64,000 bases of DNA, taken from assembly GCA_021736255.1 (NCBI GenBank), contig JAIPGG010000004.1, forward strand, positions 3,747 to 67,746, given 5' to 3'. A program made the translations under genes and the position numbers. The notes under the pieces were generated by a model that saw only the letters and a program-made list of their open reading frames with translations, did not search any database and was not told the origin of the DNA. The DNA comes from Spirochaetales bacterium (GTDB lineage Bacteria > Spirochaetota > Spirochaetia > JAIPGG01). Below, one piece after another: positions 9,207 through 52,570 of the stretch (positions are counted from its first letter, which is position 1; the number at the start of each line of letters is the position of its first letter).

Positions 9207-10148
9207 TTACTGCACAACAGGGTATCCTTCGGTTACCCAGCCCATGGGCTCGTTCTTCGGTGTTCCCATACCGCCTTTGAGAGAGGCGGCATCATAACCG
9301 ATGACCTTCAGGATGGCCACAGTCTGCCCGGCAGTCTGTCCGCTGTAGCAATTTACTATGAGCTTCTTGTCTGCGGGAAGGCTTCCGAACATCTCGTGCA
9401 TATCGGCCCCGTAGGGAATGTTGACGGCCGTTTCGATATGCCCCTGGTCGTAGTCTTCTTTTCGGCGGATATCGACGAACTGCACCGAATCATCTTCTGC
9501 ATCGAGGATCTTCTTTGCGTTCTCTGAACTAATGATGTTGTTTGCAAAGGGAGTTCCGGCAAGTTCTTCGAATTCCTTATAATAGGCGTCTACCGTTTCC
9601 TGTACGGCCGGAGCGATCTCATTGTTTGCAGAGGGTACGGCTACCTCGGTAGTATCGATAAACTCATCTGCGCCTTCTACCTTGGAAAAACCGTAGTTGA
9701 ACCCGTACCGCACGGACTTGACGGGGATTCCGGCAAGGTTCAAGAGCGCCACCGTCTGCCCGGCGGTCTGCCCGCTGTAGCAGTAGAGATAGACCTGTCC
9801 GCTCTGGGGAATAGATGCCAGGTACTGTGCAAAATCCGGGCCCCAGGGCATGTTTACCGCTCCGGTAACATGTGCCTCTGCATAGGCATCGGGTTGACGG
9901 ATATCAATAACGAACATATCCTCGCCGTTTTGCAGCTTCTCGAGGAGCATCTCCTCCTTGATAATGTAGCCGCCCTGAGGGTATTCGTCGAAGTAGTCCT
10001 TTGCGAGTTCAGTTACATCAACAGCCGGTTCAGCAGCTTCCTGGGCCTGCTGTTCTCCCTGCGCACCTTCCTGCTGCCCCTTCGCGGTTACGGTCGCCGC
10101 GGAAAGTACCAGCAGAAGCACCAATAGAATGGGAAAGAGCTTTTTCAT
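9207..10148 (-). CDS. exported tandem-rhodanese sulfurtransferase
   Basis: Start reassigned to MKKLFPILLVLLLVLSAATVTA (signal peptide, RBS GGAGGAAG). There are two rhodanese domains, each with an active-site loop CYSGQTAGQT. Confidence 0.8.
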   Translation of the reverse strand: MKKLFPILLVLLLVLSAATVTAKGQQEGAQGEQQAQEAAEPAVDVTELAKDYFDEYPQGGYIIKEEMLLEKLQNGEDMFVIDIRQPDAYAEAHVTGAVNMPWGPDFAQYLASIPQSGQVYLYCYSGQTAGQTVALLNLAGIPVKSVRYGFNYGFSKVEGADEFIDTTEVAVPSANNEIAPAVQETVDAYYKEFEELAGTPFANNIISSENAKKILDAEDDSVQFVDIRRKEDYDQGHIETAVNIPYGADMHEMFGSLPADKKLIVNCYSGQTAGQTVAILKVIGYDAASLKGGMGTPKNEPMGWVTEGYPVVQ

Positions 10149-17391: not shown

Positions 17392-18407
17392 CAGGCGCTA
17401 CCCTCCAGATTCTTCAGAGCCTTTTTTGCTTTGCGCAATATCGGTTCACCATCGGAGGCCATTGAGGTAATCTTTTGATAGAATCCCTTGGCCTTGGCAG
17501 ATTCCTCTTTTTGCTCATAAGAACGGCCAACATGATAAAGCGCCTCCAGAAGATCCGGGTGGCGGGGATAGTTCTTTACCAGATTCGTAAACTGCATAAT
17601 TGCCTTGTCGTACTGTCCGAGCTGAAAAAAACAGCGGCCGATCTCGAACTCAGCTTTTGCAGCATATTCCTTATCACTTGACTGTTCCCGGATTTCTTGG
17701 AACACCTTGAGTGCATCAGGATACATCTGCCTGCTGAACAGGCTGACCGCCTCGTAGTAGCGCTTTGCAACATCCGACATAGTATTTGTTCCGCTGCCTC
17801 CGGCAGGCTTCTCCATATCGGCACCGCGGCTTTGTGTCACAGGGTTTGGGCCGGCCCCTTCCCCATACGCCTGGCTGTACTCCTCCGCCTTTTGAATATA
17901 CTCGGTTGAAGCGGAGGCGTGTACACCTGAAGGATAATAGGTAATATACCGCCGAAAGGCATAAAGCGCCTGAGCATAGCGTTTATTTTTCATATAATAT
18001 TCGCCAATAGTAAATAAACCTGTTTCCGGATTGGCTTGCTCACCCGAGGAAAGAAGATTCTGCACCTGTTTATGAATACGTCTAAGCTGGTTCGAAAAAA
18101 CCCGGAGCATCTTCATAATGATACGGGTGTTGCTCATTGCCAGTTTCTCGAATTCCGGAACGGTAAAAGCAAGGACGGATGCCGTTTTCAATACAACGGC
18201 CGTTTCTTCCCGGGGATACTTCCCTAATGCGGATTTGACACCGAAAAACTCACCTGTCTGAATCAAATCGTGTAGTTCCTGGCCTGTTTCAATGTCCGTC
18301 GAATTAAGACTGACGCTCCCGGATTTAAGAATGTATACACGGTCACTGACGTCTCCTTTGAAATAGATTATGGAGTTCGTCTTGTACTGTATAGCTTTCG
18401 GCGACAT
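17391..18407 (-). CDS. cyclic-nucleotide-binding-domain protein fused to TPR repeats
   Basis: N-terminal CAP effector-like domain (IYFKGDVSDRVYILKSGSV ... FFGVKSALGKYPREETAVV) and C-terminal TPR units (YAQALYAFRRYITYYP, YPDALKVFQEI, YDKAIMQFTNLVKNYP). Confidence 0.75.
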   Translation of the reverse strand: MSPKAIQYKTNSIIYFKGDVSDRVYILKSGSVSLNSTDIETGQELHDLIQTGEFFGVKSALGKYPREETAVVLKTASVLAFTVPEFEKLAMSNTRIIMKMLRVFSNQLRRIHKQVQNLLSSGEQANPETGLFTIGEYYMKNKRYAQALYAFRRYITYYPSGVHASASTEYIQKAEEYSQAYGEGAGPNPVTQSRGADMEKPAGGSGTNTMSDVAKRYYEAVSLFSRQMYPDALKVFQEIREQSSDKEYAAKAEFEIGRCFFQLGQYDKAIMQFTNLVKNYPRHPDLLEALYHVGRSYEQKEESAKAKGFYQKITSMASDGEPILRKAKKALKNLEGSA

Positions 18408-18408
18408 T

Positions 18409-19656
18409 TCAGCTTTCGTCCTCGGTCATGGAAAACGGTAAATAATCGAGATGTTTTTCGAAACCAACAGCCTTCCTAACCGTACGAAGCAGGCCGGCCG
18501 GCTCCCCGGCAACGAGCATCCGCCGGTCTGCTACATTGAGCATCTCGCCATCTACTTCCCTTTGTTCGAAAATCGGGTGAAAATCAGCCTCTCCGTATAT
18601 CGGCTTCCCCTCGAGGGTCAGAAGGGCAATATCCTCCATCCGAGCCTCGACTAATGCCTCATAGGGATCAGCTCTACGCGGTCTGAGGAATAACAAATCA
18701 GCAAACATACCGGGCTCTATCCTACCAATTCTATCATCCATTCGAAAGGCCTTTGCCGGATTTCTCGTAATCATATGCACGAGGGTTTCGGCGGGTATGT
18801 CTTCCTGGTACATTTCCCGGTAAATCCGGCGGGCAAATCGAACCTCTTCGAGCAGGTTTACAGAACCGGTGGCCGTTGAATCAGTTCCGATACTGACGTT
18901 TATACCCGCCTCGAGCATCTCGCGGATTTTGCAGGTTACATTGAACATAAAGATATTCGACCCCGGACACCACGAAACATGGGCGCCGGCTTCACTGGTT
19001 TTCCGGATATCTTCTTCGCTGAAACCGAGACAGTGTATAAACACACAATGATCATCGAGTATATTGAGGCTTTCTAGGTAGTCTATCCCCTGCTGAGATT
19101 CCTGGTCGAAACCTTCTTCCAAGTGGGTAATAAAAGGATGGTTTCTTTTTACCGCCCTCCGGTGTTCGATCTCTACGCCATCGCCCCACCCCAGATCGTA
19201 GGATGAACATTCATGAGCGAGGGTGTAGTCGGAAATGACTCGAATCGGAAGATGTGGAATGAATGGTTCGTTGAACTCATGAGGAAAATGGTCGTTTACC
19301 GTGGTTACCCCGGAAAACAGATTCTTATAGGCGCTGAGGTAGTACATTTGATCGACGGAAATATTTGAACGCTCGGCTACTACATCCGACCCTTTTAAAT
19401 CATTATCCCAATAGGACCAGTTCACATAGTACGCCCGATTTTTCGGTCCTACCCTCGGAAGATAATCCCCGCGCAGATGATCATGAATATTGATTAGTCC
19501 GGGGTAAACATAGAGGGTTCCCGAATAATCTACAAAGTGTTTATCCGCGTTTCCAACTGATCCTATACGTTTGCCTTCGATACCGATCGAACTGTTTTCG
19601 AGTACAGAATCGGGAGTAACGAGGGTAACACCCTGAAACGAATAGTGTTTTTGCAT
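18409..19656 (-). CDS. amidohydrolase-superfamily metal-dependent hydrolase
   Basis: N-terminal beta-sandwich followed by an INIHDHL metal-binding motif, and a later GTDS motif. The length is typical of chlorohydrolase/deaminase-like members. Confidence 0.7.
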   Translation of the reverse strand: MQKHYSFQGVTLVTPDSVLENSSIGIEGKRIGSVGNADKHFVDYSGTLYVYPGLINIHDHLRGDYLPRVGPKNRAYYVNWSYWDNDLKGSDVVAERSNISVDQMYYLSAYKNLFSGVTTVNDHFPHEFNEPFIPHLPIRVISDYTLAHECSSYDLGWGDGVEIEHRRAVKRNHPFITHLEEGFDQESQQGIDYLESLNILDDHCVFIHCLGFSEEDIRKTSEAGAHVSWCPGSNIFMFNVTCKIREMLEAGINVSIGTDSTATGSVNLLEEVRFARRIYREMYQEDIPAETLVHMITRNPAKAFRMDDRIGRIEPGMFADLLFLRPRRADPYEALVEARMEDIALLTLEGKPIYGEADFHPIFEQREVDGEMLNVADRRMLVAGEPAGLLRTVRKAVGFEKHLDYLPFSMTEDES

Positions 19657-37004: not shown

Positions 37005-37058
37005 GGGAAAAACTAAAACAAACAGCACCTTCTGTCAACTCTGACGGCAAGGTGCTGT
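37005..37058 (-). terminator. Rho-independent terminator after the sigma-factor gene
   Basis: A 10-bp stem ACAGCACCTT/AAGGTGCTGT. On the minus strand it is followed by TTTGTTTTAGTTTTT. Confidence 0.6.
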
Positions 37059-37098: not shown

Positions 37099-37986
37099 TC
37101 AGCCCATATAGGATTCGAGAAGCGCACTTCTCGACGGATGCTGCAACCGCTTGATTGCCTTTTTCTCTATCTGCCGTATTCTTTCCTTCGTGAGCTCATA
37201 ACGATCTCCGATTTCTTTGAGGGAAAGAGGGCTTCTTCCGTTCAAACCGAAACGATACTGTATGATCTCTGATTCCTTTTCGGTGAGCGAATCAAGTACC
37301 TGATTAATGTCTTCCCGCAAGGAGTTTCCGAGTACTCTTTGATCGGGCGATTCATACCCAAAATCCTCAACAAAATCACTGAGAACTGCTGAATCCTTCT
37401 CGGAATACATGGGGGTTTCCAGTGAAACCAGATCCCGGGATATGTTGATCAAGTCGGCTACATGTTTTTCATCCATGTTCAGCTCTTTTGCAATGTCGTC
37501 GACTTCCGGGTCGCCGTTTTTTTCTCGCTGGAGCTGTTTGCGGGCCTTATCGATTTGAACAAGCTCATTGGCGCGATTAAGCGGCAGCCGGATCATACGT
37601 GATTTTTCGCAAACTGCCTTGAGAATGGCCTGTCTGATCCACCACACGGCATACGAGATAAAGTGATACCCCTTGGTTACATCATAGCGCTCTATCGCGT
37701 TCATGAGGCCGATATTCCCTTCGCTTATAAGATCCGATAGAGGAAGGCCCTGATTCTGGTATTTCTTTGCAACGTTTACAACAAAACGGAGATTCGCCTG
37801 GACCAGCTTGTGTTTTGCAATTTCGTCACCTTCGGCCGCACGAGTAGCATATTCATTCTCTTCCTCTCTGCTCAAAAGAGGAATACGATTGATTTCTTTC
37901 AGATACATGGAAAGTACATTCTCATCATCTGCATTTTCCGTGTAGATTTCGTTCTGTTTACCTGTCTTTGTCTTTGTCTTCGTCAT
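37099..37986 (-). CDS. sigma-70 family RNA polymerase sigma factor, short group-2 (RpoS-like) type
   Basis: Start reassigned to MTKTKTKTGKQ (RBS GGGAGGAG), giving 295 aa. Region 2 (YHFISYAVWWIRQAI), region 3, and region 4.2 (ELTKERIRQIEKKAIKRL) are present. There is no long region 1.1. Confidence 0.85.
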   Translation of the reverse strand: MTKTKTKTGKQNEIYTENADDENVLSMYLKEINRIPLLSREEENEYATRAAEGDEIAKHKLVQANLRFVVNVAKKYQNQGLPLSDLISEGNIGLMNAIERYDVTKGYHFISYAVWWIRQAILKAVCEKSRMIRLPLNRANELVQIDKARKQLQREKNGDPEVDDIAKELNMDEKHVADLINISRDLVSLETPMYSEKDSAVLSDFVEDFGYESPDQRVLGNSLREDINQVLDSLTEKESEIIQYRFGLNGRSPLSLKEIGDRYELTKERIRQIEKKAIKRLQHPSRSALLESYMG

Positions 37987-38008
37987 AACTCCTCCCACTG
38001 GTATATAC

Positions 38009-38024
38009 TGCAAAGAGCATGCCA
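38009..38024 (-). promoter_or_regulatory. sigma-54 (-24/-12) promoter candidate
   Basis: The minus strand reads TGGCATG-CTCT-TTGCA, one mismatch from the consensus TGGCACG-N4-TTGCW. It ends 22 nt upstream of the sigma-factor ATG. Confidence 0.6.
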
Positions 38025-38066
38025 ACACCATCCGGAGGAACTCTGCTGTAAATTCTTATATTACAA

Positions 38067-38080
38067 TGATTTGCAAATCA
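38067..38080. promoter_or_regulatory. perfect 14-bp palindrome TGATTTGCAAATCA (candidate operator)
   Basis: The sequence is self-complementary as read. It lies about 45 bp upstream of the -24 element and overlaps a possible TTGATT -35 hexamer. Confidence 0.35.
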
Positions 38081-38158
38081 ATAGATAAAAGCCGGAATTC
38101 AAGAACTCCTGATTTGAGTTGTTTTGACACATTCTATATTCGCCTTTCCTAATTTGAG

Positions 38159-38926
38159 TCATTCTGCCCCACTCAAGAGCTCTTCAGGGGATGGAGTGCG
38201 CCCGCAGCAAAGGTAATTGGGCAGTCCGCTCCCGCAAGAGCACGGGGCGGTATAGTTTTGATAGTAACAGCCGCTTCTTCGAAGCGATTGAGGGAGCAGA
38301 TCCTGATAGAGCATCGTCGTTGTGGGAAAAATGATGGAATAACTCTGGAAATACTCGAGCTTTTCTATGGTCCCCATCAGTTCCAGCTCATTCGATTCAC
38401 AAATAGTCTGCCAGGCGTCCAGGATGAGCTCCCGGACCATATCTTGCTCTGCAAAAGTCCCGATTTTCCCACTGGGTTTGAGGGCCATGTAACGCTTCAG
38501 TTGAATCGAATAAAAGGCAACCCAGTCATCGAGTTCAGGGGTGCTCTGTCGCACCATTCCGTAATCATTGGTATACTTCTCCAACATCTCGGCGATGAAG
38601 GGAAAGTGATGATACCTTTCTGCGGAAATCCAGCTCCGAACGGCTCTGCCTACGGATCCGAGCTTTTGCAGTGCCAGACCGGTGTAGTACAGGATTCTCG
38701 AGACTTCCCGGGATAAATGTTCAGGACAGGTCCTCGAGGCGGCACGAAAGAGTTCCAGAGCTTCCTCGGTCTTGCCGTCTTCAAGAGCATCAAGCCCCAT
38801 GTCGAGGAAAATACTATGGGTAAAGAATTTTTCCGATCCCTCCATATCTGTAAAATAGCAAGAATACAGATCGCGGGCAACAATAGATTTTTCTTGACCC
38901 CTTTGCAGTTCAAACGTATATTTCAT
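38159..38926 (-). CDS. SEC-C metal-binding-motif protein with TPR-like helical region
   Basis: C-terminal CSCGSGLPNYLCCG (SEC-C motif). The start is ambiguous between 38926 (MKYTFEL) and 38950. Confidence 0.55.
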   Translation of the reverse strand: MKYTFELQRGQEKSIVARDLYSCYFTDMEGSEKFFTHSIFLDMGLDALEDGKTEEALELFRAASRTCPEHLSREVSRILYYTGLALQKLGSVGRAVRSWISAERYHHFPFIAEMLEKYTNDYGMVRQSTPELDDWVAFYSIQLKRYMALKPSGKIGTFAEQDMVRELILDAWQTICESNELELMGTIEKLEYFQSYSIIFPTTTMLYQDLLPQSLRRSGCYYQNYTAPCSCGSGLPNYLCCGRTPSPEELLSGAE

Positions 38927-38982: not shown

Positions 38983-39246
38983 ATGAAGATCAATCCTATT
39001 GGAGACAGAGTCCTGGTAAAAATGCAGGAAGGAGAAACCAAAACTGCAGGTGGTATTTTCATTCCTGATACCGCCCAGGAAAAGACCCAGATCGGGGAAG
39101 TTATCGCAGTCGGAGATGATGAAGCGGTTACCGTAAAAATCGGTCAAAAGATCATCTATGACAAATATGCCGGTACTTCCATCAAGGTAGACGGTGATGA
39201 ACAGCTCATCCTGAATATGGATGATATACTGGCTGTAGTCGAATAA
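38983..39246 (+). CDS. groES: co-chaperonin GroES
   Basis: MKINPIGDRVLVKMQEGETKTAGGIFIPDTAQEK. AGGAGG lies 7 nt upstream. No groEL follows. Confidence 0.9.
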   Translation: MKINPIGDRVLVKMQEGETKTAGGIFIPDTAQEKTQIGEVIAVGDDEAVTVKIGQKIIYDKYAGTSIKVDGDEQLILNMDDILAVVE

Positions 39247-39288
39247 GCCGGGTATCCAAAGCTTATTTTCCTGTCACACGTTAATCAA

Positions 39289-39332
39289 CGGGAATACTTC
39301 CACAACAAACTGGAGGTGTTTCCGTTTTTTTT
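39289..39332 (+). terminator. Rho-independent terminator after groES
   Basis: Stem CGGGAATACTTCCA / TGGAGGTGTTTCCG (with G-U pairs) followed by T8. Confidence 0.7.
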
Positions 39333-39343
39333 CGTGTTATTCG

Positions 39344-41779
39344 TCATTCGAACAGAAAGTCTTCAATCGCTTCTGATACCTGAGCGGTATTCCCCCCTGC
39401 AGACCGGGTTTCCGGAACGGATTTAAGAAAGAGTTTTCCGTAGCCCTTGGTAGAGAGCCGGGGATCGAGTACTAAAACCACTCCCCGGTCCTCGTTCCCC
39501 CGAATCAGGCGTCCGAACCCCTGCCTAAAGCGCATCACAGCTTCCGGAAGAGAAAGATCCCGGAATCCGCTTTTCCCCTGAGCCTCCAGCCAACTGTAAC
39601 GAGCCCGGGCAACCGGGTGCGAGGGAACACGAAAGGGAAGCCGGGTCAGAACAACTATACTCAGTGATTCACCCGGCGCATCGACTCCCTCCCAAAACGA
39701 ACTCGTAGCAAGGAGCACGCTCGAAATATCGTCATGGAAACTCCTCAAAAGACGGGCGCGGTCCTGCTGTCCCTGACGAAGCACAGTAATTCCCAAGGGT
39801 TCGAGCCGGGTTTTTATACTCTGGTAGACATCGTTGAGGAGTTCATAAGAGGTAAACAGCACAAGGGCTCGCCCCTCCGTCAGTTCCATCATTTCCGGCA
39901 GAACGGTTTTCAGATATTCTCTCCATTCCGGGCTTCCTGTGGCTGGTATGTCCTCCGGCGAAGCAAGCAGGACCCTGTTCTTGTAATCAAAAGGGGACTG
40001 GAGAAGCAGGGTCCGCACCCCTTCGAGACGGTCCAGACCGACCCGTTTAAACCAGAAGGAAAAGGAAGAAGCCACCGTAAGCGTAGCGGAGGTAAAAACA
40101 GCGGCCGAAACCGGCTCATAGAGGGATTCCCGCATCAAGGGTGCAATATCAACAGGTGTCGCCGACCACCGGACCTGCGGACCTCCCTCGCCGAAAGAAA
40201 CCTGTTCGAGCCAGTAGATCGTCTGGTCATCTTCGTACCATCGATTCCAGGCCTCACATACGGAAGACCACTCTTCAACCCGGCGAAGATAAGCCCGGAG
40301 CTCGAGGACCTCCTGCTCCTCTTCGAGGGTAGCAGGACAGGCATCCAGAAGGGATGCAATTCGGTCAGCCGTTTCGATCAGAGAATTCGATAATACACCG
40401 ATAGCCGAAAGAATTTCATCCTGCTTTTCCTGCGGAAGAGCAGGTTCCATAAGCAGGTTCCGTTCACCGGCGAGAAGGTCTATTGTCCGAGCCAGGGCTC
40501 GCTCCGAAGATGTGCGAAGATTTTCAACCGAATCCACCACCCCGGCATATTCTTTTCCGAGTGAGCTCCCGGCCTTCCGAATGAAGCGGGGCAGAACCCC
40601 GCCCTTTCTTCTTTTCCTCTGGTGTATTAAGCGATTGCACAGCCCCTCGACTCCGGCAGGCATGACGGTGCGGGAAAAAAACGATGTAGCGCTCTCTTCG
40701 ATATTATGGGCTTCATCAAAAATGACTCTCCTGAAGGCCGGCAGAACCGCCGCTCCATCGAAATCTCCCCCGCCTAGACGAAGAGAAAGGTCTGCAAACA
40801 GGAGATGGTGATTCGTTACAAGAATTCGTGCTGAGGCAGCCTGCCTTCGTGCGTGGATGAAAAAGCATGTATCCCGATAGGGACAGCGCAGACCCAAGCA
40901 GCTTTCCCGCTCTGAGCGTACAAGGGACCAGATCCTGTCGGATACAGGTACAGGAAGACCGGACCTGCTGCCGTCTTGATCGTTTTCAGCCCACTCTTTC
41001 AGCATCTCTAATTGATCTGATTCATTTTCGAAGAGTTCCGGTTCCAGAAGGATGTCCTTCAACCTCCGGAGACAAAGATAATTCCCCCGGCCCTTTACCA
41101 GAACCGCCTGCAGACCGGAAGCGAGGTGCCTCTGCACAAGGGGAATATCCTTCTCTATGAGCTGCTGTTGGAGATTGATCGTCGCGGTAGAGATCACGAT
41201 CCGTTCATCATTCTTTTCCGCCCATACACAAGCCGGTACCAAGTAAGCCAGAGATTTCCCGACTCCCGTCCCCGCTTCGACTACCGAGAGCTCCTTTTGG
41301 TTGAACGCTTCGGCCACCCGGCGGAGCATCCGAACCTGCTCCTCCCGGGGTTCAAAACCTTCGATCTCTGCGGGGAAACGACCCCCGGCATCTATCAGAG
41401 AAGCAAGCTCATCCGGATTGATGGGAGTTATCGCACCTGCGGGGTGGGCCCGGGCAACAACCGTTACCTCCTCGATGGTATTGTTTACAAGATAAAATCC
41501 TACCCCCTGGTTCCCGATCCTCGAGGCCACCGCAAGGTCGGCCCTGCTCGGTTCGAGAATCCCCGATGGGTGATTATGGATTACCACATCGCCTCGTTCC
41601 ATGTGCGGCTCGAGGGCCGGAACCATGTCTGTTGAACCGCGGGCAGCCTTTTCCACCCCGTTAACCCGGCCCTCTTCATCCAGCCTGCCCACCCAGAGGA
41701 TCTCGTTTCCGTTTTCATCGGAGACGTTCGCTCTCATCTCGAGGAGTACTTCCGATGCAAACCATTTTTCTATCGACAT
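39344..41779 (-). CDS. DinG/XPD-family Fe-S DNA helicase with N-terminal JAB/MPN (RadC-like) domain
   Basis: The N-terminal 115 aa carry an intact JAMM motif, HNHPSGILEPSRAD. Helicase motif I is AGTGVGKSLAY, with a Cys cluster (CLRRL...CLGLRCPYRDTC) and a DEAH box (FDEAHN). Confidence 0.85.
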   Translation of the reverse strand: MSIEKWFASEVLLEMRANVSDENGNEILWVGRLDEEGRVNGVEKAARGSTDMVPALEPHMERGDVVIHNHPSGILEPSRADLAVASRIGNQGVGFYLVNNTIEEVTVVARAHPAGAITPINPDELASLIDAGGRFPAEIEGFEPREEQVRMLRRVAEAFNQKELSVVEAGTGVGKSLAYLVPACVWAEKNDERIVISTATINLQQQLIEKDIPLVQRHLASGLQAVLVKGRGNYLCLRRLKDILLEPELFENESDQLEMLKEWAENDQDGSRSGLPVPVSDRIWSLVRSERESCLGLRCPYRDTCFFIHARRQAASARILVTNHHLLFADLSLRLGGGDFDGAAVLPAFRRVIFDEAHNIEESATSFFSRTVMPAGVEGLCNRLIHQRKRRKGGVLPRFIRKAGSSLGKEYAGVVDSVENLRTSSERALARTIDLLAGERNLLMEPALPQEKQDEILSAIGVLSNSLIETADRIASLLDACPATLEEEQEVLELRAYLRRVEEWSSVCEAWNRWYEDDQTIYWLEQVSFGEGGPQVRWSATPVDIAPLMRESLYEPVSAAVFTSATLTVASSFSFWFKRVGLDRLEGVRTLLLQSPFDYKNRVLLASPEDIPATGSPEWREYLKTVLPEMMELTEGRALVLFTSYELLNDVYQSIKTRLEPLGITVLRQGQQDRARLLRSFHDDISSVLLATSSFWEGVDAPGESLSIVVLTRLPFRVPSHPVARARYSWLEAQGKSGFRDLSLPEAVMRFRQGFGRLIRGNEDRGVVLVLDPRLSTKGYGKLFLKSVPETRSAGGNTAQVSEAIEDFLFE

Positions 41780-47208: not shown

Positions 47209-48558
47209 TCACCCGTCGATTGCGTATTCCTGCACTTTCCGGTGCAAGGTCTTCCGACCGATTCCGAGGGTCTCCGCTGTCTTGCTCTTGTTGCCCTTTT
47301 GGGACAAAAGAGTGGCCTTTATCACCTGTTTTTCAGCCTCCTGTAGTGTGGAACCGAGTGGAATTTTAATAGCATCATCCTCACTGCCGGAGAGCACCGA
47401 AGGAGGAAGATCATCCAGGGTGAGTATAGGTTTTTTAGACATCACGACCGCACTCTCGATACAGTTCCTGAGCTCCCGCACATTTCCCGGCCATGAATAC
47501 CGGTAGAGGGCCGATCTGGCCTCCGGATCGATTCCCTCCACGGATTTCTCGTTCTCTTTGGCGAACTCCTTGAGAAAGGCCGAAGTGAGCAGAGGGATAT
47601 CATCCTTCCGCTCACGCAGAGGGGGTATATTGATATTAACAACATTCAACCGGTAAAACAGGTCCTCCCTGAAACGCCCTTCTTCGATTTCCTTTTTCAG
47701 ATCTCTGTTCGTGGCAGAGATTATCCGCACATCGACTTCGAGGGTTTCCTCTCCTCCTACCCGCTCGAAGCGTTTTTCCTGCAAAACCCGCAGGATTTTG
47801 ATCTGCACGGACTGATTGATCTCCCCGATCTCGTCAAGGAATATATCTCCCCGATTTGCCAATTCGAATCTCCCCCGTTTCCGTGAAATAGCCCCGGTGA
47901 AGGCGCCCTTTTCATGGCCAAAGAGCTCGCTCTCCAAAAGAGATTCGGCAAGGGCTGCACAGTGTACCTTGATAAAGGGTTTTTCCTTTCTACTTGAAAG
48001 ATTGTGGATTGCATCGGCGATGAGTTCTTTCCCGACACCGCTTTCCCCAGTAATCAAGACCGAGGCCTTGGTAGGTGCTACCTGCTCGATCAGTTCGAAA
48101 ATCTTCTTCATCTGAGGGCTGCGGCCGATTATGTTCGAGGTGTGCTTTTTCTTTTCGAGTTCTTCCTGCAAAGCCTCGTGCTGCAGAACGAGCGCCCGGT
48201 TGGACAGGGCGCGTTTCATTAAGAGAAAAAGCCTGTCCAAATTCACCGGCTTGGTTAGAAAATCATAGGCGCCGTCACGCATTGCTTCTACGGCACTTTC
48301 TATCGTTCCATGTCCGGTAAGGATAATGACCGGGACGGTAGGATAAGCCGAGACTATCCGTTTGAGCAATTCTCCACCGGACATCTTCGGCATCTTGAGA
48401 TCGGCAATCACCAGATCCACATCGCCCCGATTCATGGCTTTCCAGCCTTCCTCTCCATCGGCGGCAAGAAGGACCTCATATTCCTCCATCTCCAGCGCTT
48501 TTTTCAAACCCTCACGTATATTCTTCTCATCATCAACGATCAGAATCTGAAAATTCAT
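47209..48558 (-). CDS. sigma-54-dependent response regulator (NtrC family enhancer-binding protein)
   Basis: Receiver (DLVIADLKMP), an AAA+ domain with GESGVGKE and GAFTGA, and a C-terminal Fis-type HTH. Confidence 0.9.
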   Translation of the reverse strand: MNFQILIVDDEKNIREGLKKALEMEEYEVLLAADGEEGWKAMNRGDVDLVIADLKMPKMSGGELLKRIVSAYPTVPVIILTGHGTIESAVEAMRDGAYDFLTKPVNLDRLFLLMKRALSNRALVLQHEALQEELEKKKHTSNIIGRSPQMKKIFELIEQVAPTKASVLITGESGVGKELIADAIHNLSSRKEKPFIKVHCAALAESLLESELFGHEKGAFTGAISRKRGRFELANRGDIFLDEIGEINQSVQIKILRVLQEKRFERVGGEETLEVDVRIISATNRDLKKEIEEGRFREDLFYRLNVVNINIPPLRERKDDIPLLTSAFLKEFAKENEKSVEGIDPEARSALYRYSWPGNVRELRNCIESAVVMSKKPILTLDDLPPSVLSGSEDDAIKIPLGSTLQEAEKQVIKATLLSQKGNKSKTAETLGIGRKTLHRKVQEYAIDG

Positions 48559-49723
48559 CCTGTTCTCCTTTCCAGTCCAACAAACGTCGCTTTCCTTCGG
48601 GCACGGGAAAAATTAGAGAAAAAACTGTTCCCTTTCCAGGCTTCGACTCCACCTGTATCTCTCCCATATGTTCCTTGATGATCTTGTAGGTCAATGTCAA
48701 ACCGAGTCCCGAGCCAAAATCCCGGGTGGTAAAATAGGGTTCGAATATTTTTTCCATTGTCTCTTCATCCATGCCATGTCCGGTATCCCGAATAGACAGA
48801 ACCACATCATTCCCTTCATTTTTGGTGGAAATTGTTAAAACGCCTCCGTCTTCCATAGCATAGAGAGCATTTTTGATGATATTGAGAACCGCCTGTTTTA
48901 TGTATTTCTCGTCGAGCTGCAACTCCGGCAAGTCAGACGAAAAATCCCGTTCGATGGCAACGCCCTTCTGCTCGAGTTCGTAGTGCATGAAATCCGCGAG
49001 ATCATCCATGAGGCTGTTTAAATTGGTCGGTTCGGGTTCAACATTCATCGGCCGAACGGCAAAGAGAAAATCAACAACGATCTTGTTCAGTCTCTCAACC
49101 TCTTCCTCCAAAACCCCGAGGTATTCTGTGAGTTTTGTCTTTTTTTCCTCTTCCAGCTGATTTGCAAGTTTCTGTATGAGCTGAATGTGAATACCCATTG
49201 ATCCGAGGGGATTTTTGATTTCATGAGCAACCCCGGCCGCCAGCGTGGTAAGCGAAGCAAGGTTTTCGGCCCTTCTGAGCCGTGCTTCCCGTTCACGCTG
49301 ATCGGTAATCTCGATAACATGAAGCAGGTTTCCTTCAATACCACCCTCCAGAACCAGGGGAACAATACTGCAGCTGAGTATCCTCTTTTTAGAACCTGAT
49401 TCGATGGTGAACACCTTGTCCCGAACACTGATTTGATCCTGCAGGTTGTCACGAACAAACTCGGCTACATCCTCGTCTTCTATTACCGTCCAGATTTGTT
49501 TTTCATACCAGTCCGGATCATGTAACGGTAAAAACCGCTCTATCTGTTTATTCATCAAAATCAGACGGTGTTCGGTATCTGCAACCATCACCCCGTCAAT
49601 CATCGAATCGAGAACCATTTCCAAAAGCTCGTTTTCATCCGCCAGGTCCAGAAAAAGAGAACGCAGCTGATGATGATCTATCCGATCGATTCTGTTCAAT
49701 GCCTTCTGAATGAATTTTCTCAT
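48533..49723 (-). CDS. cytoplasmic PAS-domain sensor histidine kinase
   Basis: PAS-like N-terminus, H-box VAHEIKNPL, and ATPase motifs DTGHGM and GSGLGL. It has no TM segments and overlaps the RR gene by 26 nt. Confidence 0.85.
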   Translation of the reverse strand: MRKFIQKALNRIDRIDHHQLRSLFLDLADENELLEMVLDSMIDGVMVADTEHRLILMNKQIERFLPLHDPDWYEKQIWTVIEDEDVAEFVRDNLQDQISVRDKVFTIESGSKKRILSCSIVPLVLEGGIEGNLLHVIEITDQREREARLRRAENLASLTTLAAGVAHEIKNPLGSMGIHIQLIQKLANQLEEEKKTKLTEYLGVLEEEVERLNKIVVDFLFAVRPMNVEPEPTNLNSLMDDLADFMHYELEQKGVAIERDFSSDLPELQLDEKYIKQAVLNIIKNALYAMEDGGVLTISTKNEGNDVVLSIRDTGHGMDEETMEKIFEPYFTTRDFGSGLGLTLTYKIIKEHMGEIQVESKPGKGTVFSLIFPVPEGKRRLLDWKGEQDEFSDSDR

Positions 49724-50931
49724 ACAGCGTCCCTGAGTCGATAAACAAGAGTTTCAGAGAGAAACTCCGGGGTTTGGTTATAGCTCTCCGCCATACGTCC
49801 AGTCTCCATAATAATCCTCTTCATTCGGTCGAACCGCTCAACGACACCGGGCCCAAAATCCTGGTTTTCTATCTGCTTCATCCCCGCCTCGAGGGCCGCA
49901 AGGAGCTCTTCGAGGAACACTTGAAAGCTTTGCGGAGGTCCTTCCTGTATAAGCCGGAGCGGCTCAGAAATAAGTGTTCCCGACTGCTTTTCTCCATTGA
50001 AAACAGATTCAAAAAGGCGGGCGGCGGTTTTTTGCATCCTGTCCCGGTCGATACCGCTGAAGCTGTGCATATAGTCGCGAATACGATGGTAATACCCTGG
50101 TTCTCTTCGAAAGACTCTGGCGAGTACTTCCTGTTCCCCGGAGGAGCCGCGGTCGGCAAACTCATAATTCCGGAGTCGCGAAAGTATAGTGGGAAGGAGT
50201 CTGCTCCGCTCCCGAGCTATAAGAATAAAAAAGGTATCGGTCGGAGGTTCCTCGAGGATTTTGAGAAACGCATTCGCTGCGCTGGTCTGAAGCTGCTGTG
50301 CTCTATCGATGATAACGGTCTTCGGGCCGCCGGAAGATGCGCTCATTCTCGACCAGAAGGCCACATTCCGAACGAGATGCACGGGAATACCGCCGGTCGG
50401 CAACCGGGTGGAAAGCTTTTCGGCTGATTCAATCAAATTCGTCAGCCGCTTCTCCAAAATCGCTTCAGACTCCAGTTCAGCCGGGGGAGCAATGGCTTCC
50501 GAATGATCCATGAGTTCTTCGAGAAGTCCTGCCGCCCCCCGGATACGGTCATTAGCCCCCTCCCAGAGGACCGGATCAAAACGCCGCGTGAGTTTTCTTA
50601 CCGCCCGTACGAGCATGTATCTCACTGCCGGGCTGTGATCGGCCCGCAGCATCTCAGCTGCGGCACGCAGTTCTTCCAGATGAGCTCGGTTCCCAATGAG
50701 CATCATATCCGGATGTTCGAGCAAACGGTGACTTCTGCATGAAGAACAACTGCAGTTCCATTCAGCCTGTCCTTTGCGGCAAGAGAGTGCACGGGAAAGC
50801 TCGAGAGCTGCAGTCAGCTTCCCGGAAAAGTCAGGTCCCGAAAATAACAACCCGCCCGGTAAATTGCCGGAGGCAACAGCAGCTGCCAATTCCTGGGCCA
50901 ACACGGGATGCCCGAGAAGATTATCAAACAT
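49720..50931 (-). CDS. holB: DNA polymerase III delta-prime-like AAA+ protein
   Basis: GGLLFSGPDFSGK P-loop-like motif, a Cys module CSCSSCRSH, and IIDRA and SRL motifs. At 403 aa it is longer than typical HolB. Confidence 0.65.
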   Translation of the reverse strand: MFDNLLGHPVLAQELAAAVASGNLPGGLLFSGPDFSGKLTAALELSRALSCRKGQAEWNCSCSSCRSHRLLEHPDMMLIGNRAHLEELRAAAEMLRADHSPAVRYMLVRAVRKLTRRFDPVLWEGANDRIRGAAGLLEELMDHSEAIAPPAELESEAILEKRLTNLIESAEKLSTRLPTGGIPVHLVRNVAFWSRMSASSGGPKTVIIDRAQQLQTSAANAFLKILEEPPTDTFFILIARERSRLLPTILSRLRNYEFADRGSSGEQEVLARVFRREPGYYHRIRDYMHSFSGIDRDRMQKTAARLFESVFNGEKQSGTLISEPLRLIQEGPPQSFQVFLEELLAALEAGMKQIENQDFGPGVVERFDRMKRIIMETGRMAESYNQTPEFLSETLVYRLRDAV

Positions 50932-51430
50932 TCAACACCTCCAAACGCTGATTCAAATCCCAGGGGAGTTCCTGCAACACCGGGGGAAGATAACGAAAGG
51001 TCCATTGTGCACCAAGACTCTCGTCGAGGAGTTCCTGCGCATCAAAAAACGGTTGGAGTTGAAGCGCCATAACGATGAGTACGACAAGCAGTACACCCTC
51101 TACCCAACCGAGAAGAAAACCGAATGCCCGATCGAGCTTTTCAAGATGGATTGCCTCCAAAAGACGGTGAAGCGCACTCTCGAGTATTTTTACCACAAGA
51201 TACACAACGAGTAAAATCATCAGAAAAGAAATGACCGGATTCCAGGCGGATTCTCCGAATGTCCTTTCAAGGTATGCTGAACCTGTACGGTAGAGCGTGA
51301 TTGCCGCCACCAGACTCAGGATAATCCCCGCCAGGGACATGAACTCTGCAATAAATCCCCGAATAGTACACCTGATAACAGCAACAAGGAGTACCGCGGC
51401 CAGGATGACATCAAGGACACCGATCTGCAT
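50924..51430 (-). CDS. cvpA: CvpA family membrane protein
   Basis: 168 aa with four TM helices, and an N-terminus typical of CvpA (VLDVILAAVLLVAVIRCTIRGF). Confidence 0.7.
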   Translation of the reverse strand: MQIGVLDVILAAVLLVAVIRCTIRGFIAEFMSLAGIILSLVAAITLYRTGSAYLERTFGESAWNPVISFLMILLVVYLVVKILESALHRLLEAIHLEKLDRAFGFLLGWVEGVLLVVLIVMALQLQPFFDAQELLDESLGAQWTFRYLPPVLQELPWDLNQRLEVLNV

Positions 51431-52570
51431 TCATACACCCGCCGTCTCGAGAATCCGGGCTGCTATCCGTTGTGCCGCCCCGGCCCGGAAGAGCCGGCTC
51501 GCCTTCTCTTCCATTGTTCGAAGCCGCTCCGGCTCGGCGGCCAGAGTATTCAAGTCATCCGAAAAAACCTTCGCCGGCGGGAGTTCGAGCGGCAGCTCAT
51601 CCCCCGTCCCGCTCCTGCCCGGGTCGGTGTCCTTCAGCCCGGGGCCGGCAGCAGCCCCCTGACCTCGGAAAAAAGCAGCATTCCGCACCTGGTCACCCCG
51701 AGTTCCCGAACCCGACAAAGGCAGAAGATAAGACGCCTTTCCAAGGGCTGCAAATTCCCACAAAGCACCCGCTCCGGAGCGGGACACGACAAGATCGGCT
51801 GCAGCAAGAATGGAGGGAAATTCACTGGTCCAAAAAGGACGACTGATATATCGTTTTGTATCGATGGAGGAAGGGACGGGAATCGGCTTCCCCGTTTGAT
51901 GGACTACAATCCAGCGCGGCAGTAAAAGAGGCAGGGCTTCGAGGACGAGCATGTTCATCTTTTCTGCTCCCTGACTTCCGCCTATAACCAGGAGGATCGG
52001 TTCCTCCCTGCTTACCCCCAGATAGCGTCTGCCTGCTGCGGAATCGGCTTCCATGATTTCTGAACGCACCGGATTCCCGGTTACTTCGAGTCTTTCCTGG
52101 ATAGAATCAGGGTAAAATTCCCTGCTTTCACAGAAAGGAATAAATACCCGCCTTGCACGCTTGAGCGCTACGCGGGTAGCAAGCCCGGGATCCATATCCG
52201 ATTCATGAGCATAAACCGGTATTCCGAGTTGCCCTGCTGCTAGTACGGAAGGAACGCTCACATATCCTCCCTTCGAAAAGAGGGCGTCGGGAGCAAGCCG
52301 TTTCAGCAACCTGCGGGACTGGAGAACCCCCAGAGCTACCCGAAACAGATCCAGCAGGTTTCTTACAGATAGATACCGGCGAACCTTGCCGGTTGATACC
52401 GGATAATATTGATATGGCCAACGAGAGAGAATTTCCCGCTCAATACCGTTTTTCGAACCTATCCAGACTATCCGGCATTCGTCGACGGTGGTCAAAGCTT
52501 CCGCAACGGCAATGCCCGGGAAGACGTGACCCCCGCTCCCACCGCCGGTTATTGCTATCAATCTTTTCAT
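51431..52570 (-). CDS. murG: lipid II synthase MurG (UDP-GlcNAc:lipid I GlcNAc transferase)
   Basis: ITGGGSGGHVFPG N-terminal motif and a GT28 C-terminal domain (GGSQGA). Confidence 0.85.
   Translation of the reverse strand: MKRLIAITGGGSGGHVFPGIAVAEALTTVDECRIVWIGSKNGIEREILSRWPYQYYPVSTGKVRRYLSVRNLLDLFRVALGVLQSRRLLKRLAPDALFSKGGYVSVPSVLAAGQLGIPVYAHESDMDPGLATRVALKRARRVFIPFCESREFYPDSIQERLEVTGNPVRSEIMEADSAAGRRYLGVSREEPILLVIGGSQGAEKMNMLVLEALPLLLPRWIVVHQTGKPIPVPSSIDTKRYISRPFWTSEFPSILAAADLVVSRSGAGALWEFAALGKASYLLPLSGSGTRGDQVRNAAFFRGQGAAAGPGLKDTDPGRSGTGDELPLELPPAKVFSDDLNTLAAEPERLRTMEEKASRLFRAGAAQRIAARILETAGV

Follow-up and report, generated by a model that had tools for sequence, protein, structure and literature searches.

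Does a short, near-consensus sequence match in front of a sigma factor gene mark a sigma-54-dependent control region, and if so, which activator serves it and how far beyond Borrelia does such a sigma-to-sigma relay extend? These questions are raised by a 64,000-nucleotide stretch of a Spirochaetales genome (contig JAIPGG010000004.1 of assembly GCA_021736255.1; referred to below, at its full length, as the window), in which a minus-strand gene for a 295-aa protein of the sigma-70 family is directly preceded by a candidate -24/-12 promoter, as a preliminary description of this DNA had pointed out. The analysis of the window and of homologous loci from other genomes presented here suggests that the segment from about 38171 to 37987 (minus strand) is likely a complete sigma-54-dependent control region of an alternative sigma gene, whose likely activator is the Hk2-Rrp2 two-component pair, with genes 9 kb distant. 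The promoter and the palindromic enhancer that accompanies it are, judging by their conservation, very probably functional sigma-54 elements, and a relay from sigma-54 to a second sigma factor appears to be widespread in free-living and host-associated spirochaetes.

Promoter and tandem enhancer of the sigma gene

The core of the candidate promoter, TGGCATGCTCTTTGCA (coordinates of this and all other features are collected in Table 1), differs from the full sigma-54 consensus TGGCAC-N5-TTGCW by one mismatch, as originally described, and carries its GG and GC dinucleotides 10 bp apart, with the ATG of the sigma gene 22 nt downstream. The letters immediately before it on the minus strand are GGATGGTGT, and the minus strand from 38040 to 37981 reads TTCCTCCGGATGGTGT-TGGCATGCTCTTTGCA-GTATATACCAGTGGGAGGAGTT-ATG. 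The preliminary description had been concerned with the background rate of such sites; within the window TGGCATGCTCTTTGCA is the sole match to TGGCAY-N5-TTGCW, with 0.09 matches expected by chance and at least one match in 9 of 100 shuffles of the window. With one mismatch to the full consensus allowed, 0.46 matches are expected and 38 of 100 shuffles contain a match. Taken from the window alone, the promoter is suggestive rather than proven, and it is the conservation of the site that appears to settle its reality.

A homologue scan with the sigma protein, restricted to one genome per species, yielded 80 loci, including 23 spirochaete loci (48–76% identity), while the non-spirochaete loci encode short primary sigmas of Bacteroidota, Gemmatimonadota and their allies (44–50% identity). 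The motif TGGC(A/G)(C/T)-N5-(C/T)TGC(A/T) is present on the coding strand, 21–105 nt before the predicted start codon, in 18 of the 23 spirochaete loci, and the promoter-bearing loci span Spirochaetaceae, Breznakiella homolactica, Rectinema subterraneum, Sphaerochaeta and many Treponema metagenome-assembled genomes; in the closest relatives the gap between motif and ATG is 21–24 nt, the same as in the window. A search for this relaxed motif on both strands returned 21 occurrences in the 398 kb of the 23 spirochaete loci, 18 of them directly before the sigma orthologue, and 11 occurrences in 944 kb of the non-spirochaete loci. An intact motif was also observed in loci fetched later, those of Treponema phagedenis (TGGCATGTAATTTGCT), T. 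pedis and a Marispirochaeta-like contig, and overall at least 21 independent loci have it in the same position. The flanking sequence has diverged completely and cannot be aligned between these loci, which argues that the motif itself is under selection. A matrix derived from 17 orthologous promoters (the window promoter excluded) assigns 24.1 bits to TGGCATGCTCTTTGCA vs. 9.9 bits to the next best window site (128 kb scanned). The initial claim of a near-consensus sigma-54 promoter directly before the sigma gene is thus well supported, both by this score and by the conservation of the site at the orthologous position, and its occurrence in Spirochaetaceae, Treponema, Breznakiella, Rectinema and Sphaerochaeta loci is in line with the accompanying suggestion that the relay extends beyond Borrelia.

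Some loci depart from this pattern. Locus L002 carries the variant TGGCATGCTTCTTGTA, in which the GC of the -12 element is changed to GT. The promoter motif is absent at L017, L018, L020 and L026 (Leptospiraceae), which occupy separate branches in the tree. These four loci encode related short sigmas (48–51% identity) with neither a sigma-54 promoter nor an enhancer, L017 and L018 having in addition longer open N-terminal regions, and their products may represent a different paralogue or the primary sigma of those lineages.

The position of the C in the GC at -12 would, if transcription begins at the customary distance from it, place the start near 37998 and therefore give a leader of about 12 nt, with the Shine-Dalgarno sequence GGGAGGAG at its beginning; this agrees with the earlier prediction of a start about 12 nt before the ATG and just ahead of the ribosome-binding site.

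Further upstream of these promoters, the words GTCAAAA and CAAAATG and the dyad GTCA-N3-TGAC are enriched relative to shuffles and resolve into a 17-bp palindrome with the consensus TGTGTCAAAATGACACA. The window has two such palindromes, TGGGGCAGAATGACTCA (distal, overlapping the stop codon of the upstream gene for a TPR/SEC-C protein) and TGTGTCAAAACAACTCA (proximal), exactly 40 bp apart, a phasing that it has in common with 15 other loci. At a matrix threshold of 11 bits, 34 palindrome matches were detected in the search zones of 420 nt upstream of the promoters (~8 kb in total) vs. 23 in the other 475 kb of spirochaete sequence and 35 in 944 kb of non-spirochaete sequence; this enrichment is partly circular, as the matrix was trained on the sites that it scores, but the spacing is not. 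The distances between palindromes are exactly 40 bp in 17 of 20 pairwise comparisons and 80 bp in one, and a 40-bp pair is found in 16 of 25 loci vs. zero loci in any of 200 shuffles. In T. phagedenis, which lies outside the training set, the palindromes are at -206 and -166 from the promoter. In loci where the TPR/SEC-C gene intervenes between groES and the sigma gene, the palindromes remain beside the sigma gene; they are therefore not groES operators, a reading that could be ruled out on this ground.

NtrC-family enhancers have the same 7-N3-7 geometry and the same 40-bp (four-turn) phasing, and the pair would accordingly resemble a tandem enhancer bound by an activator. As far as could be checked against an incomplete coverage of the literature, the motif TGTGTCAAAATGACACA is new: the only relevant match of the enhancer sequence in literature text was a paper on Escherichia coli NorR, and the palindrome core GTCA-N3-TGAC equals the NorR enhancer core GT-N7-AC (PMC2831303; norR-norV intergenic sequence). 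The enhancer and the promoter are separated by an A+T-rich spacer, and A+T-rich stretches occupy the same position in L006–L011. Within the spacer of the window lies a perfect 14-bp palindrome, TGATTTGCAAATCA, which was not found conserved in the other loci and may be a site for a DNA-bending protein or an accessory regulator.

Two weaker palindrome matches elsewhere in the window (11–12 bits) are unpaired and have no adjacent -24/-12 element, and were judged to be noise. Scattered through the fetched loci are further sigma-54-like motifs (L007 1042; L013 17818, minus strand; L026 8534) and strong single enhancer-like palindromes (L016 10246; L013 1722; L010 981 and 8904), which could mark other members of the regulon.

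Hk2-Rrp2 as candidate activator and the alternatives

The preliminary description had placed an NtrC-family activator and its kinase 9 kb from the sigma gene and likened this arrangement to the Borrelia burgdorferi relay, and both statements hold. The regulator and kinase genes are on the same strand as the sigma gene; the regulator, whose best NCBIfam matches are AtoC, NtrC and ZraR, has its GAFTGA sigma-54 contact motif, Walker A motif and receiver aspartate all intact, and is the sole sigma-54 activator in the window. An alignment over 450 aa gives 57% identity with Borrelia Rrp2; the value is 31% for the kinase and Hk2 and also 31% for the MurG proteins. The five-gene order murG-cvpA-holB-hk2-rrp2 is common to the window (52570–47209, minus strand) and Borrelia, where the locus runs rpoS, three genes, murG, cvpA, holB, hk2, rrp2. 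Given the shared gene order and these identities, the window pair is therefore a positional orthologue of Hk2-Rrp2.

The linkage of this histidine kinase–response regulator (HK-RR) pair to the sigma gene recurs in other loci: L027 has the order HK-RR-dinG-groES(-)-sigma, and the Marispirochaeta-like L105 has holB-HK-RR-(3 genes)-dinG-groES(-)-SEC-C-sigma-PPDK, as in the window. The distance between the pair and the sigma gene is 7–9 kb in the window and L105, and in L027 the pair stands next to dinG-groES-sigma. The recognition helix of the helix-turn-helix domain hardly varies among the window (GNKSKTAETLGIGRKTLHRK), L027 (GNKSKASEVLDIGRKTLHRK) and Borrelia (NNKSKCAEILKIGRKTLHNK), which would fit a conserved DNA site and is not proof of which protein binds it. 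This helix contains an LHR motif common to NorR, where NtrC has LTR, a resemblance too weak to assign specificity. In the Borrelia locus (L081), the DNA-binding helix of Rrp2 (17468–18826) is almost identical to that of the free-living spirochaetes, and no matching palindrome was found upstream of rpoS (9850–10000). Two weak palindrome matches in L081, at 18888 and 18929 (41 bp apart, just after rrp2, in A+T-rich DNA), are probably noise. With moderate confidence, we propose the Hk2-Rrp2 orthologue as the activator of the window sigma promoter.

The mechanism suggested by these elements would proceed as follows. RNA polymerase with sigma-54 would bind TGGCAT-N5-TTGCA in a closed complex, while dimers of the NtrC-family activator would occupy the two palindromes on the same helix face, approximately 100 and 140 bp upstream. 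The activator would then oligomerise, loop over the A+T-rich spacer and open the promoter using ATP, with transcription starting at the predicted position. The resulting short group-1/2-like sigma would redirect polymerase to an adaptation or stress regulon. With Hk2-Rrp2 as the most likely activator, the entire arrangement would be a counterpart of the Borrelia Rrp2-RpoN-RpoS relay.

Several points weigh against this mechanism. A six-frame search of the window and of all fetched loci revealed no RpoN box. The predicted leader leaves the Shine-Dalgarno sequence at the extreme 5' end of the transcript, and the -12 element is followed by a conserved TATA-rich stretch, which, instead of simply melting readily, could serve as the -10 box of a sigma-70-type promoter. 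The TPR/SEC-C gene upstream runs in the same direction at a distance of 127 nt, with no terminator predicted in between, and read-through from it may contribute to sigma expression. In T. putidum (L102) and a T. denticola-like contig (L095), TAGCAT takes the place of TGGCAT at -24; at both places (L095 1032–1047; 68 nt upstream of the ATG in L102) the -12 TTGCT and the TATA stretch are retained, and both loci have a single strong enhancer site. This clade may have weakened or rewired its promoter, and with TAGCAT at -24 the expression data from T. denticola may therefore not report on a sigma-54 promoter. A palindrome of another type, TGTGCC-N5-GGCAC, is also observed in this clade, 40 bp from its sole recognisable enhancer site.

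As for sigma-54 itself, the supplement of a recent survey lists rpoN for B. homolactica RmG30 and for 15 of 15 Spirochaetia genomes surveyed (PMC12316311); B. homolactica RmG30 is our locus L008, which has both the promoter and the enhancer. Across genomes in general, enhancer-binding proteins and sigma-54 co-occur almost perfectly (PMC3162934).

The T. denticola data concern TDE0937, a sigma-70-family gene three genes from groES (TDE0934), with inductions of 2.8-fold (heat), 21.8-fold (oxygen) and 14-fold (osmotic downshift); it was proposed to be a global stress regulator in an organism stated to be missing an RpoS homologue (PMC2965109). The published TDE0937 primers encode GDEDAK and QGLPLM, signatures of the window sigma family, and TDE0937 is probably the T. 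denticola member of this family. In the same organism, Hpk2 and Rrp2 (TDE1970/TDE1969) form a functional two-component system, in which the PAS domain of Hpk2 senses oxygen and Rrp2 is a predicted sigma-54 activator described as unstudied (PMC12070737). Neither of these two papers ties TDE0937 to sigma-54 or to Rrp2.

The strongest of the alternatives retains a sigma-54-dependent promoter and enhancer and assigns them to another enhancer-binding protein encoded elsewhere, e.g., a NorR-like one with a GAF domain. Free-living spirochaetes usually encode several sigma-54 activators, and most loci with full 10-kb flanks have no HK-RR pair near the sigma gene. Two further points in favor of another protein add to those that weigh against Hk2-Rrp2, namely, the identity of the palindrome core with that of the NorR site and the induction of TDE0937 by oxygen vs. 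an autophosphorylation of Hpk2 that is enhanced anaerobically (PMC2965109; PMC12070737). Nevertheless, there is a direct precedent in Borrelia for Rrp2 acting at a sigma promoter; linkage between the regulator and sigma genes is seen there as well as in the window, L027 and L105; the enhancer motif and the recognition helix of the regulator are equally conserved; and the 64-kb window encodes this activator only. On balance, a different activator appears unlikely, while still deserving serious consideration.

Far less probable, in our estimate, is that the housekeeping polymerase accounts for most transcription of the sigma gene, whether it starts at the TATA-rich element after TTGCA or reads through from the TPR/SEC-C gene, with the -24/-12 element being minor or vestigial. 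TATA-like sequences are indeed conserved 1–5 nt after the -12 element, the orientation of the upstream gene and the lack of a predicted terminator would permit read-through, and the T. denticola/T. putidum clade has changed the -24 GG to AG and kept the TATA stretch. However, neither a conserved -35 element (judged by eye) nor a conserved extended -10 is visible, and in the interval from the upstream gene to the sigma gene a promoter scan detected no sigma-70-type promoter on the sigma-gene strand. Moreover, purifying selection is seen on TGGCAC-N5-TTGC and on the phased enhancer, neither of which is used in sigma-70 initiation, and loci without the TPR gene have a divergent groES upstream, which makes read-through impossible there. 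Finally, a chance match without function, for which the shuffle frequencies given above (9 and 38 of 100) would leave room, is refuted by the comparison between loci (a shared position in 21 or more independent loci with fully diverged flanks; 24.1 vs. 9.9 bits) and can be given practically no credence.

The sigma factor and its surroundings

The sigma gene product had been described as RpoS-like. The protein belongs to the sigma-70 family (regions 1.2–4.2), and a Pfam scan of its 295 aa revealed neither region 1.1 nor the non-conserved insert; it is a short group-1/2-type sigma. Membership in the proteobacterial RpoS family, in contrast, was rejected, since both curated cut-offs are missed (262.7 bits vs. 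378.7 for TIGR02394 and 251.1 vs. 394 for NF004207), and Borrelia RpoS itself misses the RpoS model cut-off (207.1 bits). The closest relatives (74–80% identity), from Spirochaetales and Marispirochaeta, are annotated as RpoD/SigA or as "sigma-70 family". A primary sigma of the RpoD/SigA type was likewise rejected: the protein scores 294.5 bits against a cut-off of 555, matches only positions 392–629 of the 631 in the model, and has no region 1.1.

Borrelia RpoS (P0123) was recovered via primer sequences (PMC3037356) and a representative search, and its locus was fetched as L081. It is 33% identical to the window sigma, finds its best match in the comparison set in E. coli RpoS (36%), and is roughly equidistant from everything, with 30–36% identity to the spirochaete sigma family and to Bacteroidota sigmas. 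In a neighbour-joining tree it falls outside all groups, alone on a long branch, and its scores with the family hidden Markov models (192 vs. 172 bits) are no more discriminating than those of an RpoH control. BLAST rank, the neighbour-joining tree and the family models thus place Borrelia RpoS neither with nor against the spirochaete sigma clade. Borrelia encodes only RpoD, RpoN and RpoS (PMC3037356), and rpoS is therefore the sole possible counterpart of the window sigma. A common descent of the two can be argued from this sigma set and from the shared wiring, not from sequence-based orthology. A 37-aa protein (P0121, from a Logan contig of 4126 nt) begins with the Borrelia RpoS N-terminus MNIFSNEDLNIYLKSVREHKLITH and continues into unrelated sequence; it comes possibly from a sequenced rpoS insertion mutant.

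In the window and in L001–L005, L007, L008 and L105, i.e., in the less diverged lineages, groES and the sigma gene are separated by the TPR/SEC-C gene, whose product may act as a partner of the sigma factor or regulate it. In the window, L027 and L105, a gene for a DinG-type helicase lies between groES and rrp2; the window protein has an N-terminal extension of ~130 aa with HNHPSG...S..D, reminiscent of a JAB/MPN metalloprotease motif, for which Pfam returned no match. Downstream of the sigma gene, a probable intrinsic terminator was read by eye; a simple terminator scan did not list it on this strand. A search for known RNA families between 36800 and 39400 returned only one match, at chance level, to STnc30 (39208–39328, plus strand, downstream of groES; 23.5 bits vs. 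a gathering threshold of 120, E = 0.76).

Table 1. Features of the window around the sigma gene and the linked regulator operon (positions in the window).
Feature	Position	Strand	Basis or detail
Sigma-54 promoter core TGGCATGCTCTTTGCA (predicted)	38009–38024	-	-24 GG 38023–38022; -12 GC 38011–38010
Predicted 12-nt leader GTGGGAGGAGTT	37987–37998	-	From the predicted start (~37998) through GGGAGGAG
Shine-Dalgarno sequence GGGAGGAG	37989–37996	-	ATG at 37984–37986
Proximal enhancer site TGTGTCAAAACAACTCA (putative upstream activating sequence)	38115–38131	-	15.9 bits; centre ~100 bp upstream of -24 GG
Distal enhancer site TGGGGCAGAATGACTCA (putative upstream activating sequence)	38155–38171	-	15.9 bits; centre ~140 bp upstream of -24 GG
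A+T-rich spacer between enhancer and promoter	38025–38114	-	Read from sequence
Perfect 14-bp palindrome TGATTTGCAAATCA	38067–38080	-	Inside the A+T-rich spacer
Sigma-70-family gene, 295 aa	37099–37986	-	Pfam/NCBIfam: regions 1.2, 2, 3, 4 (1.2–4.2)
Probable intrinsic terminator after the sigma gene	37015–37058	-	ACAGCACCTT...AAGGTGCTGT then TTGTTTT; read by eye
TPR/SEC-C protein, 263 aa	38159–38950	-	Weak TPR match; C-terminal SEC-C-type metal motif CSCGSGLPNYLCCG
DinG-type helicase	39344–41779	-	Helicase_C_2, DEAD
Rrp2 orthologue	47209–48558	-	Domain scans: receiver, sigma-54 AAA+ domain (GAFTGA, Walker A), Fis-type helix-turn-helix (HTH_8)
Hk2 orthologue	48533–49723	-	Domain scans and position: PAS-HisKA-HATPase sensor kinase
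holB-like, cvpA and murG genes	49720–52570	-	Upstream of hk2-rrp2; order as in Borrelia

Implications and comparison with known systems

Literature on Lyme disease presents the Rrp2-RpoN-RpoS cascade as distinctive of Borrelia (e.g., the abstract of PMC4683003). The comparison presented here suggests that the wiring of the relay, i.e., a sigma-54 promoter, a short sigma gene and an Hk2-Rrp2 operon, is class-wide in Spirochaetia and not a Borrelia speciality. It supplies a concrete target for the Treponema Hpk2-Rrp2 system and a candidate DNA motif for the Rrp2 family, and it makes the enhancer-independent arrangement of Borrelia explicable as a derived, reduced state. A bolder reading, which we offer tentatively and hold to be somewhat doubtful, is that a relay with Hk2-Rrp2 input is an ancestral stress/adaptation switch of Spirochaetia and that TGTGTCAAAATGACACA is the ancestral site of the Rrp2 family, lost at Borrelia rpoS. 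If so, the relay would reach relatives of the syphilis agent, and Borrelia would have lost the rpoS site yet kept an almost unchanged Rrp2 recognition helix. Rrp2 is reportedly essential in Borrelia, and under this ancestral reading TGTGTCAAAATGACACA could be used to find the DNA targets behind that essentiality.

Control of a sigma-70-family gene by sigma-54 has parallels outside the spirochaetes, in rpoH of enterobacteria and among the COG0568 sigma genes of the aRpoNDB survey, in which such genes are associated in general terms with predicted sigma-54 promoters (2025; PMC12316311). Unlike the spirochaete relay, these are single cases or bulk predictions, and in the available portions of the sources no class-wide conserved enhancer or dedicated two-component system is described for them.

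In its architecture, the window region is most readily compared with E. coli NtrC at glnAp2 and NorR at norV, where multiple dyad activator sites likewise lie 100–250 bp upstream of a -24/-12 promoter across an A+T-rich, bendable spacer. The 17-bp 7-N3-7 geometry of the window sites is similar to that of the NtrC sites, and their core is identical to the NorR core. In contrast, the spacing in the window is exactly 40 bp, whereas the three NorR sites are ~22–23 bp apart; the target is a sigma gene rather than a metabolic or detoxification operon; and the neighbouring activator has a receiver domain and not the GAF domain of NorR.

Among spirochaetes, the T. denticola system shares with the window a PAS domain in the sensor kinase, while the T. 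denticola-like and T. putidum loci differ from it in the TAGCAT at -24 and in having one strong enhancer site.

The closest known counterpart remains the Rrp2-RpoN-RpoS system of B. burgdorferi, from which the window differs in several respects. It has two phased 17-bp palindromes, whereas none are present at the Borrelia rpoS locus, where Rrp2 reportedly acts without an enhancer (Blevins 2009). BosR sites (TAAATTAAAT) flank the Borrelia promoter, whereas a sequence check of 38025–38171 for this direct repeat revealed none at the window promoter. The predicted leader in the window is ~12 nt, compared with a motif-to-ATG gap of 62 nt in Borrelia; the neighbours of the sigma gene are groES and the SEC-C protein rather than flagellar genes; and the two sigma factors, at 33% identity, are not grouped by tree, BLAST rank or hidden Markov models. 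Nevertheless, in both systems a sigma-54 promoter (TGGCACAGTTTTTGCA in Borrelia) stands directly before a gene for a sigma-70-family protein of ~270–295 aa without region 1.1, with a nearly identical promoter core, TGGCAY-N5-TTGCA. Both also share an orthologous activator (57% identity) and an orthologous kinase, whose genes follow the order murG-cvpA-holB-hk2-rrp2 in each case, and less than 10 kb separates the regulator from the sigma gene.

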